Below are positions 19,581-52,930 of a DNA stretch of 64,000 bases, in pieces. The notes below the pieces were generated by a model, which was not told the DNA's origin, did not search any database, and was given only the letters and a program-made list of their open reading frames with translations. The stretch comes from Escherichia coli (GTDB taxonomy: Bacteria; Pseudomonadota; Gammaproteobacteria; Enterobacterales; Enterobacteriaceae). A program made the position numbers and the translations under genes. Numbering within the stretch: position 1 is the stretch's first letter; every line of letters begins with the position of its first letter. Location of the stretch: assembly GCF_044647545.1 (NCBI RefSeq), contig NZ_CP172818.1; one strand, 5' to 3'.

Positions 19581-19675
19581 GGAAGATCGTCGTCTCCGGT
19601 GAGGCGGCTGGACTTCAAATCCAGTTGGGGCCGCCAGCGGTCCCGGGCAGGTTCGACTCCTGTGATCTTCCGCCA
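19581..19675 (+). tRNA. selC: tRNA-Sec (selenocysteine tRNA)
   Basis: 95-nt sequence GGAAGATCGTCGTCTCCGGTGAGGCGGCTGGACTTCAAATCCAGTTGGGGCCGCCAGCGGTCCCGGGCAGGTTCGACTCCTGTGATCTTCCGCCA with long variable arm and anticodon-loop ACTTCAAAT (UCA anticodon). Confidence 0.97.
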
Positions 19676-25339: not shown

Positions 25340-25985
25340 AGGGAAGCCAGGTCTCAGCAAAAAAGAAAAAAAGTTGCCGGTTTAGAAACGGAACAAGGTA
25401 AAGCTGATGTACTTGGTGGTGGCGTTTTTAAAAAGCGCCTTCACCGAAATCGTGAGCGTGCAATTATTCTGCAAAAGGGGAAAAAAATTGTTTTTACACT
25501 TTTTTATATAAAAAAAAGGATATGTCAAAAATAAATAGCAAGAAACGGCTTGGTTTCCGTAAACTCCAAAACATTTTCCCCTCCCTACCAAAACCCAAAC
25601 AAAAAAAAAGATTAAAACAAAAAAACAAACAGAAATCCCCTAGACCCGAAAAAAAAAAATAAAAAACCCCCGCTTTTGGGCATTCCCAACCCCGCGGCCC
25701 GGGTTTCCCCCCCCCATGCTTTTTCTCCCCAAAAAAAACGTACTTTTACAAAACCCCCCCCACCAGCACGCAAAAACTACAACCCGGTGAAAAAAAAAAA
25801 ACACGGGAAAAAAAAAAAAGGAAGCCACCCCCCTTCGCCCCCATCCCAAAACCAGCGTTTCAACAGCACAAAAAAAGGAAAAGGGGCGCAAACCCCCCAG
25901 GGGTTCTTTAAAAATCCCCAGCATGGTGGAAAAAAAAGGGGGGGGGGGGGGGGAGTAAAAAAAAAAGAAAAAAGTCATACCAGCC
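25340..25985. other. Homopolymer-rich low-complexity block, non-coding; probable artefact or non-native insertion
   Basis: Composition degrades from ordinary sequence into long A, C and G runs (for example G16 at 25938-25953, A-runs of 10-14); no frame resembles a real protein; boundaries approximate. Confidence 0.7.
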
Positions 25986-25987
25986 CC

Positions 25988-26062
25988 AATACCGGATGCG
26001 GCGTGAACGCCTAATCCACCCTACAGGTCAGGCGCGGTCTGTAGGCTGATAAGACGAAGCGG
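25988..26062. repeat. REP (repetitive extragenic palindromic) element, partly degenerate
   Basis: CCGGATGCGGCGTGAACGCC ... GTAGGCTGATAAGACG closely resembles E. coli REP units, with several mismatches in the first unit. Confidence 0.7.
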
Positions 26063-34842: not shown

Positions 34843-35149
34843 GATTGGGTCCTGGCGGATAAAAAACGCGCATACCTTAACGATAAGCGCGATGTTGTTC
34901 AAGTTGGATATGGGGTATGTATTCTTAATGATGTTGTCTTATCTCAAAACTTACGAAAGTAACGTTGTAGTTTATTCGAAAAACGAATTATTTGTAGTTC
35001 GATTGCAATATTCCTGAAAAATTTCTCCTCCTTCGAAATCTTTTCAGTAACAAAGATCATCCAAAACCTATAATCTTCACGGAACCTCATTAAGAGATCA
35101 TCCACGAGTCGTTATGAATATAATCCTCACCGTATTCGATAAAAGAAAT

Positions 35150-36737
35150 AAAAAATAAAACTAACAATCTATTGTTTTAAAAAAAAAAGGTTGGGAAAGA
35201 AGGGAAAAACAAGAAAAAAAATTTTTTCCCAAGAAAAAAAAAAACCGGGTAACAACAAACCGGGAAAAAAAAAAAAGGTTCCTGATAAAATACCCCCTAT
35301 CAACCGACAGAAACCTTGAACAACATAATACATTACCTATTCCTGAAATACTGAACAAGAAATAATTTTCGTTTTTTCCAACAATTAAAAATTCCAAAAA
35401 ATAAATCAGCAAAAAAATTCAAAAAAAATTCGGAAATTTTTCCAACCACAAAAAACTTATCCCAAAATCAGATGGCATTAATTTTAACCAAAAAAAGAAA
35501 ATGACCCCCCAATTTCGCCAAAGAAAAAAGGAAAAACCCCAAAAAAAATTTTTAAAATTAAAAAAAAAAAGAAATAATTAAGAATAATGATTTCTATATA
35601 TTAATGGCAACAAACAAATATTAAATTACAACACAACACAAACAAACTTTAAGTAAATTACTATACAAATCAATAACAATAACACCTTAACACACAAAAC
35701 AACCTACATTTCACAGTCATAACGAAAAAAATCATAAAACCACTCAATAAATAAAACACCGAAACAAATATAAAAAACATAAAAAAAAAAAAAAAAAAAA
35801 AACAAGAAAAAAAAAAAAAATAAAATAAAAATAAAAAAAAAAACGAAACGAAAAAATAATAAACAATAAAAGACCCCCACAAACAAACAAATCAAAACTA
35901 CACTCACTCCCCCTGATTGATTAAAAAAACATCTCTCAGATATAAAATACATAAAACAAACAAAAAAATAAATGAAAAAAAACAACAAATAAATAATTTA
36001 ATAATAAAAATAAAAATATTACGCAACAACAACTATCAACAAAAAAAATAAAAAAAAAAAACAAAGATAAGAAACGTAAGAAAAAAAAAAAAAAAAAAAA
36101 AAAAGACGAAAAAAAAAAAAAACTATGAATCCGAACAAGTAAAAAAAAAAAAAAAGAACAAACAATAACCAATCAAAAAAAAAAAAATAAATAAAAAAAA
36201 AAAATTCATTTAAAAAATGAAAAAAACACAAAAAAATAGAAAACAAAAAAAATAAAACAAACGGAAAAAAAAAAAAAAAAAAAAGAAGACTGAAGAAAAA
36301 AAATACTAAAAAAATAATTAATATTAAACCAAAAATAAAAAAAAATAAAAAATAAAAAACTAAAAAAACACAAAAAATCAACAAAAAATAAAAAAAAATA
36401 AACAAACCAAAAAAAAAAAAAAAAAAAAACGAAAACATTAAAATATATAACAAAATAAAAACTAAAAAAACAAAAAACAAACAAAAAAAAAAAAGAAATA
36501 ACAATAAAAAAAAAATTATAAACAACCAAAACAAATATAAAAAAAAAAACGAAAACAAAAAAAAATTAAAAAAAAAAAGAAAAATATAAAAAAAAAGAAA
36601 AAAGAAGAAAAATACAAAAAACAAAAAAATAAAAAAAAAAAAAAACACAAAAAAAAAAAAGAAAAACGAAAACAAGAAAAAAAAGAAAAATGTAAAATCA
36701 GCAAAATTCAGAAAATTTGAAAGAGAAAAAACCAAAA
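35150..36737. other. About 1.6 kb A-rich low-complexity block between uhpA and ilvN, non-coding; probable artefact or non-native insertion
   Basis: Long poly-A runs (up to about 23 nt) with sparse C, G and T; minus-strand track ORFs are poly-Phe/Leu artefacts of the T-rich complement; ends exactly at the ilvN stop codon; start approximate. Confidence 0.75.
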
Positions 36738-37028
36738 TTACTGAAAAAACACCACGATCTTGTTAAACATCGTCGGATTAGACTGATTACGCTGCACTTT
36801 CACCACATCTTCCAGCTTATCGATTTGGCTTATCACCTACTCCAGACGCTGGTCATCCTTGACCAGTAGCCAGATATGGCTTTTGTCGCTGTCCTGAATC
36901 GGCAGGCAGAGAATGCCTTCAACGTTAAAAGCGCGACGGGCAAAAAGCCCACAAACGTGAGTCATTACGCCCGGATGGTTGCGAACGGTGAGTTCGAGAA
37001 TCACGTTGTCATGAGTTGTGTTTTGCAT
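36738..37028 (-). pseudogene. ilvN: Acetolactate synthase I small subunit, reading frame interrupted by an in-frame TAG at codon 64
   Basis: First 63 codons match IlvN; TAG at 36837-36839; the same frame continues [32 protein letters not shown] to the TAA at 36738-36740. Confidence 0.8.
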
Positions 37029-37031
37029 GGC

Positions 37032-38720
37032 TTATTCCCCCACCATTTCAGTATTCGCCGCACCTGGCGGCACCATCGGGTACACTTTTTCTTCGGCATC
37101 AATACGCACATGGATCAGCGCCGGGCCAGGGCGATTGATGATTTCCTGTAATGCAGCCTGCGGATCGGTTTCGTTATTCAAATCACAGGTTTCGAGGCCG
37201 AATCCGGCGGCAATCTGCATAAAGTTGATTTTTCCCGGATAGGTAGCGGCAAAAACGCCCTGCTTGTAGAACAGACTCTGTTGCTGATGTACCAGCCCCA
37301 GCGCTTCGTTGTTCATCAGAATGATTTTGACATCCAGCTGATTTTCACTGGCGGTCGCCATCTCCTGAATATTCATCATCAGGCTGCCGTCGCCGGAGAA
37401 ACACAACACTTTGCGATCCGGGTTCGCCAGCGCTGCGCCAATCGCCGCAGGCAGGCCAAAGCCCATCGTGCCCAGCCCGCCGGAGGTCAGCCACTGGCGC
37501 GGGCGATTGAGCGGATAAGCCTGCGCCGTCCACATCTGATGCTGACCCACGTCGGTGGTGATAATCGCGCTGTCATCGACACAGGCGGCAACAGCGTTGA
37601 TCAGGCCGTAATGCGTTAACGGATCGCACGCTTTCGGGATTGGACACGGGAATTCGCGCTGCAAATCCGCCACCAACTGGTGCCACTCTGCACGCGGTTG
37701 CGCTTCCACCAGCGGGATCAATTGCGCCAGCACGTCATCAACATCCGCCTGAATCGCTACGTGCGGTTGCTTGATTTTGCCCAGCTCTGCACGGTCGATA
37801 TCGACATGAATGATTTTCGCATTCGGGCAGAACTGCTCGGTTTTGCCAATCGCCCGGTCATCAAAACGCGCACCGAGCACAATCAGCAGATCCGCCTCCT
37901 GCAGTATATAGTTGGTGCTGCGCACGCCGTGCATCCCCAGCATACCCAGCGACAGCGGATTCGCTTTTGGCAGCATGCCCAGCGCCATTAAGGTCATGGT
38001 AGTTGGCAATTGCGCTTTCTCTGCCAGTTCACGCACCCGTGCGGGCGCATTGATCACACCGCCGCCCAGATAAAGCACCGGGCGTTTGGCGGCGTTAATC
38101 ATTGCCGCTGCGTCACGAATGCTTTCTTCGCTAAAGGCGGGTGCGGCGGCTTTTTCTGCCATAGCTGGCTGTGCTTCAATCTCAAAAACCGCCGTTTGCA
38201 CATCTTTAGGAATGTCTATCCACACCGGGCCAGGGCGGCCTGATTGCGCAATGCGGAAGGCATCGCTCATGACCTGCGGGAGTTCTTCGATATGTCTGAC
38301 CAGATAGTTGTGTTTGGTGATGGGGATAGAGATGCCGTAGGTGTCCACTTCCTGGAAGGCGTCGGTGCCGATCATCGAGGCAGGAACCTGACCGGTGATG
38401 CAAATCAGCGGGATGGAATCCAGCCGCGCATCGGCAATGGCGGTCACCAGGTTAGTCGCACCCGGTCCGCTACAGGCCATACAGACCGCCGGTTTACCGT
38501 CGGTGCGCGCCATTCCCTGAGCGATAAACCCCGCGCCCTGTTCATGGCGAGCCAGAATATGGCGGATTTGCGTGCTTTGGCTTAAGGCATCGTAAACAGG
38601 CAGGATAGAACCGCCCGGAATGCCCGTCACAATCTTAATGCCCTGCTGTTCCAGGAAATGAACGATAAATTCTGCGCCGGTAAAGCGCTTACGCGTCGAT
38701 GTTGTGCCCGAACTTGCCAT
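37032..38720 (-). CDS. ilvB: Acetolactate synthase I large subunit
   Basis: 562-codon ThDP-dependent enzyme MASSGTTSTRKRFTGAEFIVHFLEQQGIKIV. Confidence 0.95.
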   Translation of the reverse strand: MASSGTTSTRKRFTGAEFIVHFLEQQGIKIVTGIPGGSILPVYDALSQSTQIRHILARHEQGAGFIAQGMARTDGKPAVCMACSGPGATNLVTAIADARLDSIPLICITGQVPASMIGTDAFQEVDTYGISIPITKHNYLVRHIEELPQVMSDAFRIAQSGRPGPVWIDIPKDVQTAVFEIEAQPAMAEKAAAPAFSEESIRDAAAMINAAKRPVLYLGGGVINAPARVRELAEKAQLPTTMTLMALGMLPKANPLSLGMLGMHGVRSTNYILQEADLLIVLGARFDDRAIGKTEQFCPNAKIIHVDIDRAELGKIKQPHVAIQADVDDVLAQLIPLVEAQPRAEWHQLVADLQREFPCPIPKACDPLTHYGLINAVAACVDDSAIITTDVGQHQMWTAQAYPLNRPRQWLTSGGLGTMGFGLPAAIGAALANPDRKVLCFSGDGSLMMNIQEMATASENQLDVKIILMNNEALGLVHQQQSLFYKQGVFAATYPGKINFMQIAAGFGLETCDLNNETDPQAALQEIINRPGPALIHVRIDAEEKVYPMVPPGAANTEMVGE

Positions 38721-38924: not shown

Positions 38925-39049
38925 TGGGGACCTTGTTGGTTTTGTGTTTAACAATATTTATACAAGCACAGCTTTACAGGGGAGACAATGGAAAATTTTT
39001 CAGCAAGGGAAAATTGAGGGGTTGATCACGTTTTGTACTGAATTGCGGG

Positions 39050-39190
39050 TAACAAAAAACCCCGCCGGAGCGAGGTTTCGTCAGTCGCCTGCGGCTGGTA
39101 ACCGCAAAGCACACTGTATTATGTCAACACTGAAAGTATACGTGTTCCGCGCAGAACGCGCAATTTCGGCACGAATTTTGACGTATTTAG
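39050..39190 (-). ncRNA. istR: IstR small RNA region (IstR-1/IstR-2), antitoxin of tisB
   Basis: Minus-strand hairpin plus U-run terminator near 39054-39080; the segment near 39108-39128 is complementary to the tisAB leader near 39370-39390; transcript ends approximate. Confidence 0.55.
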
Positions 39191-39236
39191 TACATAGTTG
39201 AGTATCGTTCACAGTTTTCGTTTTGTCCAAATATTA

Positions 39237-39252
39237 CTGTTTATTTATACAG
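39237..39252. promoter_or_regulatory. LexA box between divergent istR-2 and tisAB
   Basis: CTGTTTATTTATACAG, a CTGT-N8-ACAG palindrome. Confidence 0.8.
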
Positions 39253-39488
39253 TAAACTTCTATAATATCACTGTACGCAATGTGTTATGCGGGGGCCGCA
39301 TCGTTACCCGGCGCACTAAGTCCTGGCTGAAACGGGTGGTGCCGTCAGCGCCTTAACCCCGCGTGAGCACACTGTGTTATGTCAACAAGCACAACGTTTC
39401 TCCTTGAGATACCGCGTGCACAACAGCTGGCAACAGGCAGCGGAAAGGTACGTCAGCTGGCAGTGCTCCTGAACCACAGGAGACGCGT

Positions 39489-39578
39489 ATGAGCCTGGTG
39501 GATATCGCCATTCTTATCCTCAAACTCATTGTTGCAGCACTGCAACTGCTTGATACTGTTCTGAAATACCTGAAGTAA
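39489..39578 (+). CDS. tisB: Type I toxin TisB (SOS-induced membrane peptide)
   Basis: 29-codon ORF MSLVDIAILILKLIVAALQLLDTVLKYLK. Confidence 0.9.
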   Translation: MSLVDIAILILKLIVAALQLLDTVLKYLK

Positions 39579-39857
39579 TTCAGATTCAAGTCGCACCAAA
39601 GGGGAGCGGGTAACCGCTCCCCTTTCATATTTAGCGTGCGGGTTGGTGTCGGATGCAATGCTGATGCATCTTATCCGCCCTACCATCCCTCCCGGCAACA
39701 TTTATTGCCGCTTTTGTTTACATATTCTGCCGCTAAACAATTCCCCATTCCTGGCGTATATCTGGCTAACATTTATCAATGTGATAGATTCCTCTCCCGC
39801 ATTTATGGGAATGCGTAGTGACTTATTCTAATTATTTTTATAAAAGCATCCGTGATA

Positions 39858-41042
39858 ATGAAAAGGCATAGAAACGTCAATTTGTTATTGATGTTGGTAT
39901 TACTCGTGGCCGTCGGTCAGATGGCGCAAACCATATATATTCCAGCTATTGCCGATATGGCGCGCGATCTCAACGTCCGTGAAGGGGCGGTGCAGAGCGT
40001 AATGGGCGCTTATCTGCTGACTTACGGTGTCTCACAGCTGTTTTATGGCCCGATTTCCGACCGTGTGGGTCGCCGACCGGTGATCCTCGTCGGAATGTCC
40101 ATTTTTATGCTGGCAACGCTGGTCGCGGTCACGACCTCCAGTTTGACAGTATTGATTGCCGCCAGCGCGATGCAGGGGATGGGCACCGGCGTTGGCGGCG
40201 TAATGGCGCGTACTTTGCCGCGTGATTTATATGAACGGACACAGTTGCGCCATGCTAATAGCCTGTTAAACATGGGAATTCTTGTCAGTCCGTTGCTCGC
40301 ACCGCTAATCGGCGGTCTGCTGGATACGATGTGGAACTGGCGCGCCTGTTATCTCTTTTTGTTGGTACTTTGTGCCGGTGTGACCTTCAGTATGGCCCGC
40401 TGGATGCCGGAAACGCGTCCGGTCGACGCACCGCGCACGCGCCTGCTTACCAGTTATAAAACGCTTTTCGGTAACAGCGGTTTTAACTGTTATTTGCTGA
40501 TGCTGATTGGCGGTCTGGCCGGGATTGCCGCCTTTGAAGCCTGCTCCGGCGTGCTGATGGGCGCGGTGTTAGGGTTGAGCAGTATGACGGTCAGTATTTT
40601 GTTTATTCTGCCGATTCCGGCGGCATTTTTTGGGGCATGGTTTGCCGGACGTCCTAATAAACGCTTCTCAACGTTGATGTGGCAGTCGGTTATCTGCTGC
40701 CTGCTGGCTGGCTTACTGATGTGGATCCCCGACTGGTTTGGCGTGATGAATGTCTGGACGCTGCTCGTTCCCGCCGCGCTGTTCTTTTTCGGTGCCGGGA
40801 TGCTGTTTCCGCTGGCGACCAGCGGCGCGATGGAGCCGTTCCCTTTCCTGGCGGGCACGGCTGGCGCGCTGGTCGGCGGTCTACAAAACATTGGTTCCGG
40901 CGTGCTGGCGTCGCTCTCTGCGATGTTGCCGCAAACCGGTCAGGGCAGCCTGGGGTTGTTGATGACCTTAATGGGATTGTTGATCGTGCTGTGCTGGCTA
41001 CCGCTGGCGACGCGGATGTCGCATCAGGGGCAGCCTGTTTAA
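39858..41042 (+). CDS. emrD: MFS multidrug efflux transporter EmrD
   Basis: 394 codons from ATG 39858 (MKRHRNVNLLLMLVLLVAVGQ); 12-TM MFS. Confidence 0.93.
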   Translation: MKRHRNVNLLLMLVLLVAVGQMAQTIYIPAIADMARDLNVREGAVQSVMGAYLLTYGVSQLFYGPISDRVGRRPVILVGMSIFMLATLVAVTTSSLTVLIAASAMQGMGTGVGGVMARTLPRDLYERTQLRHANSLLNMGILVSPLLAPLIGGLLDTMWNWRACYLFLLVLCAGVTFSMARWMPETRPVDAPRTRLLTSYKTLFGNSGFNCYLLMLIGGLAGIAAFEACSGVLMGAVLGLSSMTVSILFILPIPAAFFGAWFAGRPNKRFSTLMWQSVICCLLAGLLMWIPDWFGVMNVWTLLVPAALFFFGAGMLFPLATSGAMEPFPFLAGTAGALVGGLQNIGSGVLASLSAMLPQTGQGSLGLLMTLMGLLIVLCWLPLATRMSHQGQPV

Positions 41043-52426: not shown

Positions 52427-52840
52427 TTAGTTGATTTCGATACGGCGCGGTTTTTTCGCTTCCGGAATCACGCGTTCAAGATCGATATACAGCAGACCAT
52501 TCACCAGGTTAGCACCACGAACATGAATGTTCTCAGCTAACTGGAATTTGCGTTCAAAGTTGCGTTCAGCGATGCCCTGGTACAGATAGGTGCGCTCTTT
52601 TTGTTCGTCGGCGTGAGCACCTTTCACCACCAGCAGATTATCCTGGGCGGTAATTTCCAGTTCGCTCTCAGCAAAACCAGCCACAGCGATAGCAATGCGG
52701 TAATGGTTTTCGTCTACCAGTTCAACGTTATACGGAGGGTAGCCGCCATTACTCTGGCTCTGGTTGTTTTCTAAGTGGTTAAACAAACGGTCAAATCCAA
52801 TAGCAGAACGGTAAAGCGGGGATAAATCAAAGTTACGCAT
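52427..52840 (-). CDS. ibpA: Small heat shock protein IbpA
   Basis: 137 codons from the ATG at 52840 ([12 protein letters not shown]); alpha-crystallin domain. Confidence 0.93.
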
Positions 52841-52930
52841 AATCAATAGCTCCTGAAATCAGCGAGAATGTAAGACCTTCCACAATGGACAGGTCAGGTA
52901 GCCAGAACACCCATCAGGCGCGTCCTCATC

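Follow-up and report, generated by a model that had tools for sequence, protein, structure and literature searches.

The tisB/istR-1 toxin-antitoxin locus of an Escherichia coli chromosome, an intact copy with one rare amino-acid change in TisB

Genes, RNAs and control elements of the locus

Between 39054 and 39631 of the window, by which is meant the whole 64-kb stretch of Escherichia coli DNA analysed here, lies what is almost certainly an intact copy of the chromosomal tisB/istR-1 type I toxin-antitoxin locus. The two transcription units are divergent and do not overlap: istR is on the minus strand and ends at 39193, and tisAB is read on the plus strand from about 39273. The neighbours are ivbL-ilvBN (minus strand; ilvB 37032-38720) on one side and ysdE-emrD (emrD 39852-41042) on the other, and the K-12 MG1655 locus (b4618/b4616) occupies the same genomic site, between ivbL and emrD. 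Three independent scans (Rfam, NCBIfam and genome identity) agree on a tisB/istR-1 module at 39000-39650, and no sequence feature contradicting this explanation was found at the locus. Complete E. coli genomes that carry a RefSeq tisB annotation are 100% identical to the locus over 651 bp, and also over 2101 bp, with the annotated gene coinciding exactly with the open reading frame at 39489-39578. Pairwise alignment with K-12 MG1655 gives 98% identity, with 10 differences in 611 aligned positions. The IstR-1 RNA, the LexA box, all promoter hexamers, the whole tisAB leader, the Shine-Dalgarno sequence and the terminator stems are identical to their K-12 counterparts. The first-pass annotation, made from the sequence alone, had named the locus tisB/istR-1, and Rfam, NCBIfam, the RefSeq-annotated identical genomes and the K-12 alignment all bear this out.

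The toxin gene, tisB (39489-39578, plus strand), encodes a 29-aa membrane toxin that reads MSLVDIAILILKLIVAALQLLDTVLKYLK. The 29-codon frame had been recognized as TisB in the first-pass annotation, and residues 1-29 exceed the cut-offs of both NCBIfam TisB equivalogs (NF011340, 67.6 bits against a cut-off of 53; TIGR04459, 58.6 bits against 38). Relative to K-12, the peptide carries two substitutions, N2S and A23T, the latter arising from a change in codon 23 at 39555. S2 is the common form of TisB: 85% of E. coli have it, and its toxicity has been demonstrated (PMC11264685). The exact nucleotide allele (S2 plus T23) is present in 82 of 5426 complete E. coli genomes, and its carriers include several ST648-type isolates as well as bird, dog and human isolates. 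Sequencing error was considered as the source of A23T and ruled out, since the same 651 bp recur unchanged in many complete genomes.

The antitoxin RNA was located by an Rfam scan of the entire window with gathering thresholds applied. The istR family (RF01400) matches at 39054-39183 on the minus strand over model positions 1-130 of 130, with an E-value of 3.7e-31; the score of 150.1 bits stands well above the gathering score of 45 and answers the covariance-model check that had been proposed for istR. In the MG1655 annotation, IstR-1 (73 nt) lies at 3853118-3853190 and shares its 3′ end with IstR-2 (140 nt). Transfer of these coordinates places IstR-1, the antitoxin, at 39054-39126 on the minus strand, in a stretch that is identical to K-12 and falls inside the Rfam match; for a 75-nt RNA, the 5′ end could instead lie at 39128. 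The longer, SOS-induced IstR-2 is placed in the same way at 39054-39193, of which the Rfam match covers 39054-39183, and it differs from K-12 by one base, at its position +2 (39192). Both RNAs end in an intrinsic terminator hairpin (39055-39080, minus strand) followed by a U-run to 39054, as indicated by the Rfam structure line (model positions 103-129) and by an RNAfold hairpin. A terminator scan found a terminator-like hairpin with a U-run at 39071-39059 on the minus strand. Together with the full-length RF01400 match, this upholds the first-pass description of a divergent small-RNA region with a terminator.

Upstream of IstR-1, a candidate promoter at 39135-39163 (minus strand), identified by reading the sequence, consists of a -35 element TTGCGC (39163-39158), a 17-nt spacer and a -10 element TATACT (39140-39135); the -10 hexamer is invariant in all 23 species compared. 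A promoter scan placed the putative IstR-2 promoter at 39201-39229 (minus strand), with TGGACA and GATACT separated by 17 nt. On the opposite strand, the sequence TATAAT at 39261-39266 corresponds to the element named as the tisAB -10 in PMC11264685, and from its spacing the tisAB transcription start probably falls at about 39273-39275. The hexamers tabulated for MG1655 (Table 1 of PMC11264685) are equal to those found here, namely TTGCGC/TATACT, TGGACA/GATACT and TATAAT. As judged from the sequence, IstR-1 is thus predicted to have a sigma-70 promoter of its own, with separate, putatively LexA-controlled promoters for tisAB and IstR-2 at the expected positions.

The element common to the divergent tisAB and istR-2 promoters is a LexA (SOS) box, TACTGTTTATTTATACAGTA, at 39235-39254. 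It sits 5 nt upstream of the istR-2 -35 element and overlaps the expected position of the tisAB -35. The CTGT-N8-ACAG motif reported upstream of tisB in the first-pass annotation is present at 39237-39252, and the full 20-mer agrees with the consensus TACTG(TA)5CAGTA at 18 of 20 positions. The CTGT...ACAG portion is kept in all 23 species. By itself, the bare 16-nt CTGT-N8-ACAG pattern is weak evidence for a LexA site, given two matches in the window against 0.56 expected and at least two in 12 of 100 shuffles. The other match, AACTGTATATAAACACAGTT at 680-699, has counterparts in complete genomes whose surrounding genes are annotated yicC, dinD and yicG, and is presumably the known dinD SOS box.

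Between the tisAB start and tisB lies a 5′ leader of about 215 nt (39273-39488, plus strand), which aligns with K-12 over its whole length and was folded in its +1, +42 and +106 forms, the +42 and +106 ends having been set from spacing and K-12 coordinates. The tisB Shine-Dalgarno sequence, AGGAGA (39478-39483, plus strand), is given as the ribosome-binding site (RBS) in PMC11264685. An additional frame in the leader, tisA (39379-39492, plus strand), appears in the list of open reading frames with 37 codons, and its stop codon overlaps the tisB start codon (ATGA). Downstream of tisB, the intrinsic terminator of tisAB (39598-39631, plus strand) was recovered both as an inverted repeat (I1) and as a hairpin in every tisAB fold; it has a perfect 12-bp stem (39598-39609 with 39614-39625), a 4-nt loop and a T-rich tail. 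The locus end of 39578 given in the first-pass annotation therefore takes in the tisB frame and leaves out the terminator at 39598-39625 together with its T-run. The gene for a 25-codon small protein, ysdE (39702-39776, minus strand), lies just downstream of this terminator on the opposite strand.

Pairing between IstR-1 and the tisAB leader

A 22-nt segment at 39108-39129, read on the minus strand as the 5′-end antisense segment of IstR-1, is repeated at 39366-39387, read on the plus strand as its target in the tisAB leader. Both assignments draw on the repeat, the duplex energy and cross-species pair counts, and the role of the target as a ribosome standby site is taken from PMC6690012. A repeat finder (family D2) reports the two copies as a direct repeat on the plus strand with 21 of 22 positions equal. 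Because istR and tisAB are transcribed divergently, a direct repeat in the DNA yields complementary RNAs. The repeated segment that had been noticed in the first-pass annotation is therefore real, while its description as inverted is incorrect, and the second copy, which had been placed at 39370-39390, begins 4 nt further to the left. A fuzzy search of both strands of the 64-kb window, allowing up to four mismatches, found no further copy of the 22-mer.

The sole mismatch between the copies, A39118 against G39376, corresponds to a U·G wobble when the two RNAs pair. Complementarity, which was to be checked by proper alignment, accordingly amounts to 22 continuous pairs including that one U·G, with a predicted energy of -37.0 kcal/mol. 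A duplex fold of full-length IstR-1 with the leader gave -73.5 kcal/mol (shuffle mean -52) and was set aside, as it ignores intramolecular structure. A distance of 91 nt separates the end of the target from the tisB Shine-Dalgarno sequence downstream, which matches the published site about 100 nt from the RBS (PMC6690012).

Comparison across species indicates that this pairing has been maintained. Across 22 sequences, 96.5% of duplex cells are paired, as against 19-50% when the partner is slid by one to three columns, a count to be read in light of the sequences being few and related (9 distinct) and of shuffle controls that kinship can beat without structure. Two pairs show compensatory double changes, from A-U to G-C at 39122/39380 and from U-A to C-G at 39113/39371, and two further pairs show a one-sided change to G·U. 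Three Citrobacter species (loci L012, L017 and L028) have an A·C mismatch at 39122/39380. The terminal pairs of the duplex vary, which leaves a conserved core of 20 bp (39109-39128 with 39367-39386). This cross-genus covariation supports selection on the pairing between IstR-1 and the leader, and, the sample being small and related, it is to be taken as support rather than proof. The IstR-1 pairing site that the first-pass annotation had assigned to the tisAB leader thus corresponds to a 22-nt duplex kept across genera with compensatory changes.

Predicted structures of the leader are in qualitative agreement with the published mRNA forms. The tisB RBS is predicted to be sequestered in the +1, +42 and +106 forms alike (mean unpaired probability 0.17). 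Opening of the target region is modest, its unpaired probability rising from 0.36 in the +1 form to 0.48 in the +42 form, and in the +1 form the first 20 nt are predicted to pair with the left half of the target.

Distribution, related systems and other observations in the window

Of 5426 complete E. coli genomes, 4358 have tisB and 5420 have the flanks. Where the module is missing (about 20%), ivbL and ysdE-emrD are kept and roughly 160 bp of unrelated sequence stands in place of ~39003-39697. As a whole, the tis/istR module behaves as a presence/absence cassette. These counts agree with a published survey of E. coli, in which the locus was full in 82%, interrupted in 3% and absent in 15% (PMC11264685).

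Beyond E. coli, a search for TisB yielded 23 species, which belong to Citrobacter, Leclercia, Escherichia and Salmonella (Salmonella enterica subsp. diarizonae). The search compared a back-translated TisB core motif with genome contigs and accepted only the exact ILKLIVAALQLLD core, so the true taxonomic range is at least this wide. Each tisB, as far as the sequence extends, has ilvB or emrD, and usually both, as flanking genes. The Rfam istR model was found in all 12 loci scanned outside the window, at 105-150 bits. Outside Escherichia, identity to the window is 64-92% in the leader and 73-82% in the istR region.

Among related type I systems, dinQ/agrB is likewise LexA-controlled. Together with shoB/ohsC and zorO/orzO, it shares with tisB/istR-1 a small hydrophobic toxin and a divergent small RNA that pairs far from the RBS in a long 5′ UTR (PMC4147584). 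The toxins and RNAs of these three systems are nevertheless unrelated in sequence to those of tisB/istR-1, and the whole-window Rfam scan at gathering thresholds gave no match to any of their RNA families. The hok/sok system shares other features, namely a membrane toxin, activating mRNA processing and cleavage of the duplex by RNase III (PMC4147584). It differs in its antitoxin, Sok, which has a cis overlap with the target and blocks mok, a leader ORF that is translated. In tisB/istR-1 the antitoxin gene is separate from the target, the pairing spans only about 21 nt, and the antitoxin acts in competition with ribosomes at the standby site. A conserved translated upstream ORF of the hok/sok type was not found among the 23 species, 9 of which have lost the tisA ATG, the length and sequence of the frame being unconserved.

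The first-pass annotation had described tisB/istR-1 as the window's sole bona fide toxin-antitoxin system. It is the only intact one, and the whole-window Rfam scan found no other antitoxin RNA; a second locus derived from a toxin-antitoxin system lies at about 25.3-26.0 kb. This region is homologous to a pair that the closest complete genome carries between nepI and yicN, comprising a RelE/ParE-family toxin gene (annotated as frameshifted) and an HTH antitoxin-like gene. From about 25400 the window sequence turns into homopolymer-like runs in which no ORF is recognisable. The affected segment, 25400-25990, with runs such as GGGGGGGGGGGGGGGG and AAAAAAAAAAAA, aligns base for base with the RelE/ParE-HTH pair (nepI-yicN) of about 1715 complete E. 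coli genomes, and no complete genome is more than 88.6% identical to it. The segment has the look of a base-calling or assembly artefact of the source record.

A larger corrupted stretch occupies ~34925-36750, where G drops out from about 34925 and near-pure A-runs then continue to the 3′ end of ilvN. The counterpart of this stretch in FDAARGOS_497 contains two hypothetical genes. No intact 96-aa ORF for ilvN, expected at 36738-37028 on the minus strand, is present in the window; the gene is about 97% identical to that of FDAARGOS_497, though the adjacent 2.1 kb are 100% identical. The otherwise identical FDAARGOS_497 genome has an extra 18-kb island between yicS and nepI that is absent from the window (19581-19671 to ~25133) and holds type III secretion translocon genes, eilA and the 10.5-kb adhesin gene iatC. 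FDAARGOS_497 was rejected as an annotation for the whole window on account of this missing type III secretion island. The tRNA-Sec gene selC lies at 19581-19671, 19.8 kb upstream of tisB. Elsewhere in the window, a ROSE_2 RNA thermometer (52834-52906, minus strand; 100.4 bits) resides in the ibpA leader.

Proposed mechanism and alternative readings

Since IstR-1 and the tisAB leader match K-12 base for base, the published mechanism carries over, and the locus is expected to work as in K-12 MG1655. The sequence elements, their arrangement, the pairing and its evolutionary maintenance come from the present analysis; SOS induction, mRNA processing, ribosome standby, cleavage by RNase III, the toxicity of TisB, its relief by IstR-1 and persistence come from the literature on K-12 (PMC6690012; PMC4147584; PMC2826370; PMC11264685). 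In unstressed cells, LexA bound at 39235-39254 would repress both the tisAB and the divergent istR-2 promoters, and IstR-1 would be made constitutively from its own sigma-70 promoter. Upon DNA damage, LexA would be cleaved and tisAB transcribed from about 39273. The +1 primary mRNA would be inert, with the tisB RBS buried and the standby region sequestered by the 5′ end, and loss of the first 41 nt would produce the active +42 mRNA. In this form, 30S subunits could bind the single-stranded segment 39366-39387 via protein S1 and from there slide about 100 nt downstream to the tisB RBS. Pairing of the IstR-1 5′ tail with the same segment would block standby binding and direct cleavage by RNase III, giving the inert +106 form. 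Once tisAB mRNA exceeds the pool of IstR-1, TisB would be made and inserted in the inner membrane, where it would collapse the proton motive force and the ATP level and give rise to dormant, antibiotic-tolerant cells.

The position of tisA invites another reading of the leader, in which tisA is truly translated, with coupling to tisB of the kind that links mok to hok, and in which the tisA start codon, not a standby site, is what IstR-1 blocks. The tisA ATG (39379-39381) does sit within the IstR-1 target, the tisA stop overlaps the tisB ATG, and over 99% of E. coli loci preserve the 37-codon ORF (PMC11264685). However, the covarying base 39380 is the middle of this start codon, which reads ACG in 9 of the 23 species (loci L008, L009, L012, L013, L016, L017, L018, L026 and L028). 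Six of the nine bear the compensating base in IstR and so keep the pairing while losing the codon; the three Citrobacter species with the A·C mismatch do not. In addition, the frame measures 19, 27, 31, 37, 46 or 66 aa depending on the species, its sequences are unrelated, and a family scan returned no protein family match for the peptide. The ACG starts with compensation in IstR and the variable frame point to selection on RNA pairing and not on a TisA protein. No evidence of tisA translation is reported in the literature (PMC11264685), which does contain direct evidence for the standby mechanism (PMC6690012). A translated and coupled tisA is accordingly very improbable, and tisA is most likely not a real coding gene. 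Even further from plausibility is the suggestion that the 22-nt repeat and the LexA-like palindrome arose by chance and have no regulatory role. Its one point of support is that CTGT-N8-ACAG patterns are not rare, as the shuffled sequences indicate. Against it, the repeat is unique in 64 kb and is kept with compensatory changes in four genera whose surrounding sequence is only 64-80% identical, the LexA box is kept in every species compared, and IstR-1, the LexA box and the leader are identical to those of the experimentally dissected K-12 locus.

A further reading accepts the module as normally regulated and places the difference in the toxin, which would be weakened or altered in this lineage and have little, or a different, role in depolarisation and persistence. 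A23T does strike an otherwise invariant residue, one that adjoins D22 of the membrane helix: alanine is found there in K-12 and in all 23 other species compared, T23 in none of them, and the exact allele is confined to the 82 complete genomes counted above. The absence of the whole module from about 20% of E. coli also indicates that it is dispensable. On the other hand, the replacement of alanine by threonine is conservative and fits a transmembrane helix, and the peptide scores well above both equivalog cut-offs. The persistence of the allele in many independent human, bird and dog isolates, with the regulatory elements intact, argues for continued function. A weakened or functionally altered toxin is thus distinctly improbable.

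The tisB/istR-1 module in the window is therefore complete, and it is ordinary save for one rare amino-acid change in TisB. The system is a textbook one, already characterised; an intact copy says only that the strain has the standard module. Its wider interest is as the reference example of SOS-induced persister formation and of antisense control by competition with standby ribosomes. Conceivably, though this is unlikely, the S2/T23 combination could alter the assembly of TisB in the membrane and hence the threshold or depth of SOS-induced dormancy in this lineage.
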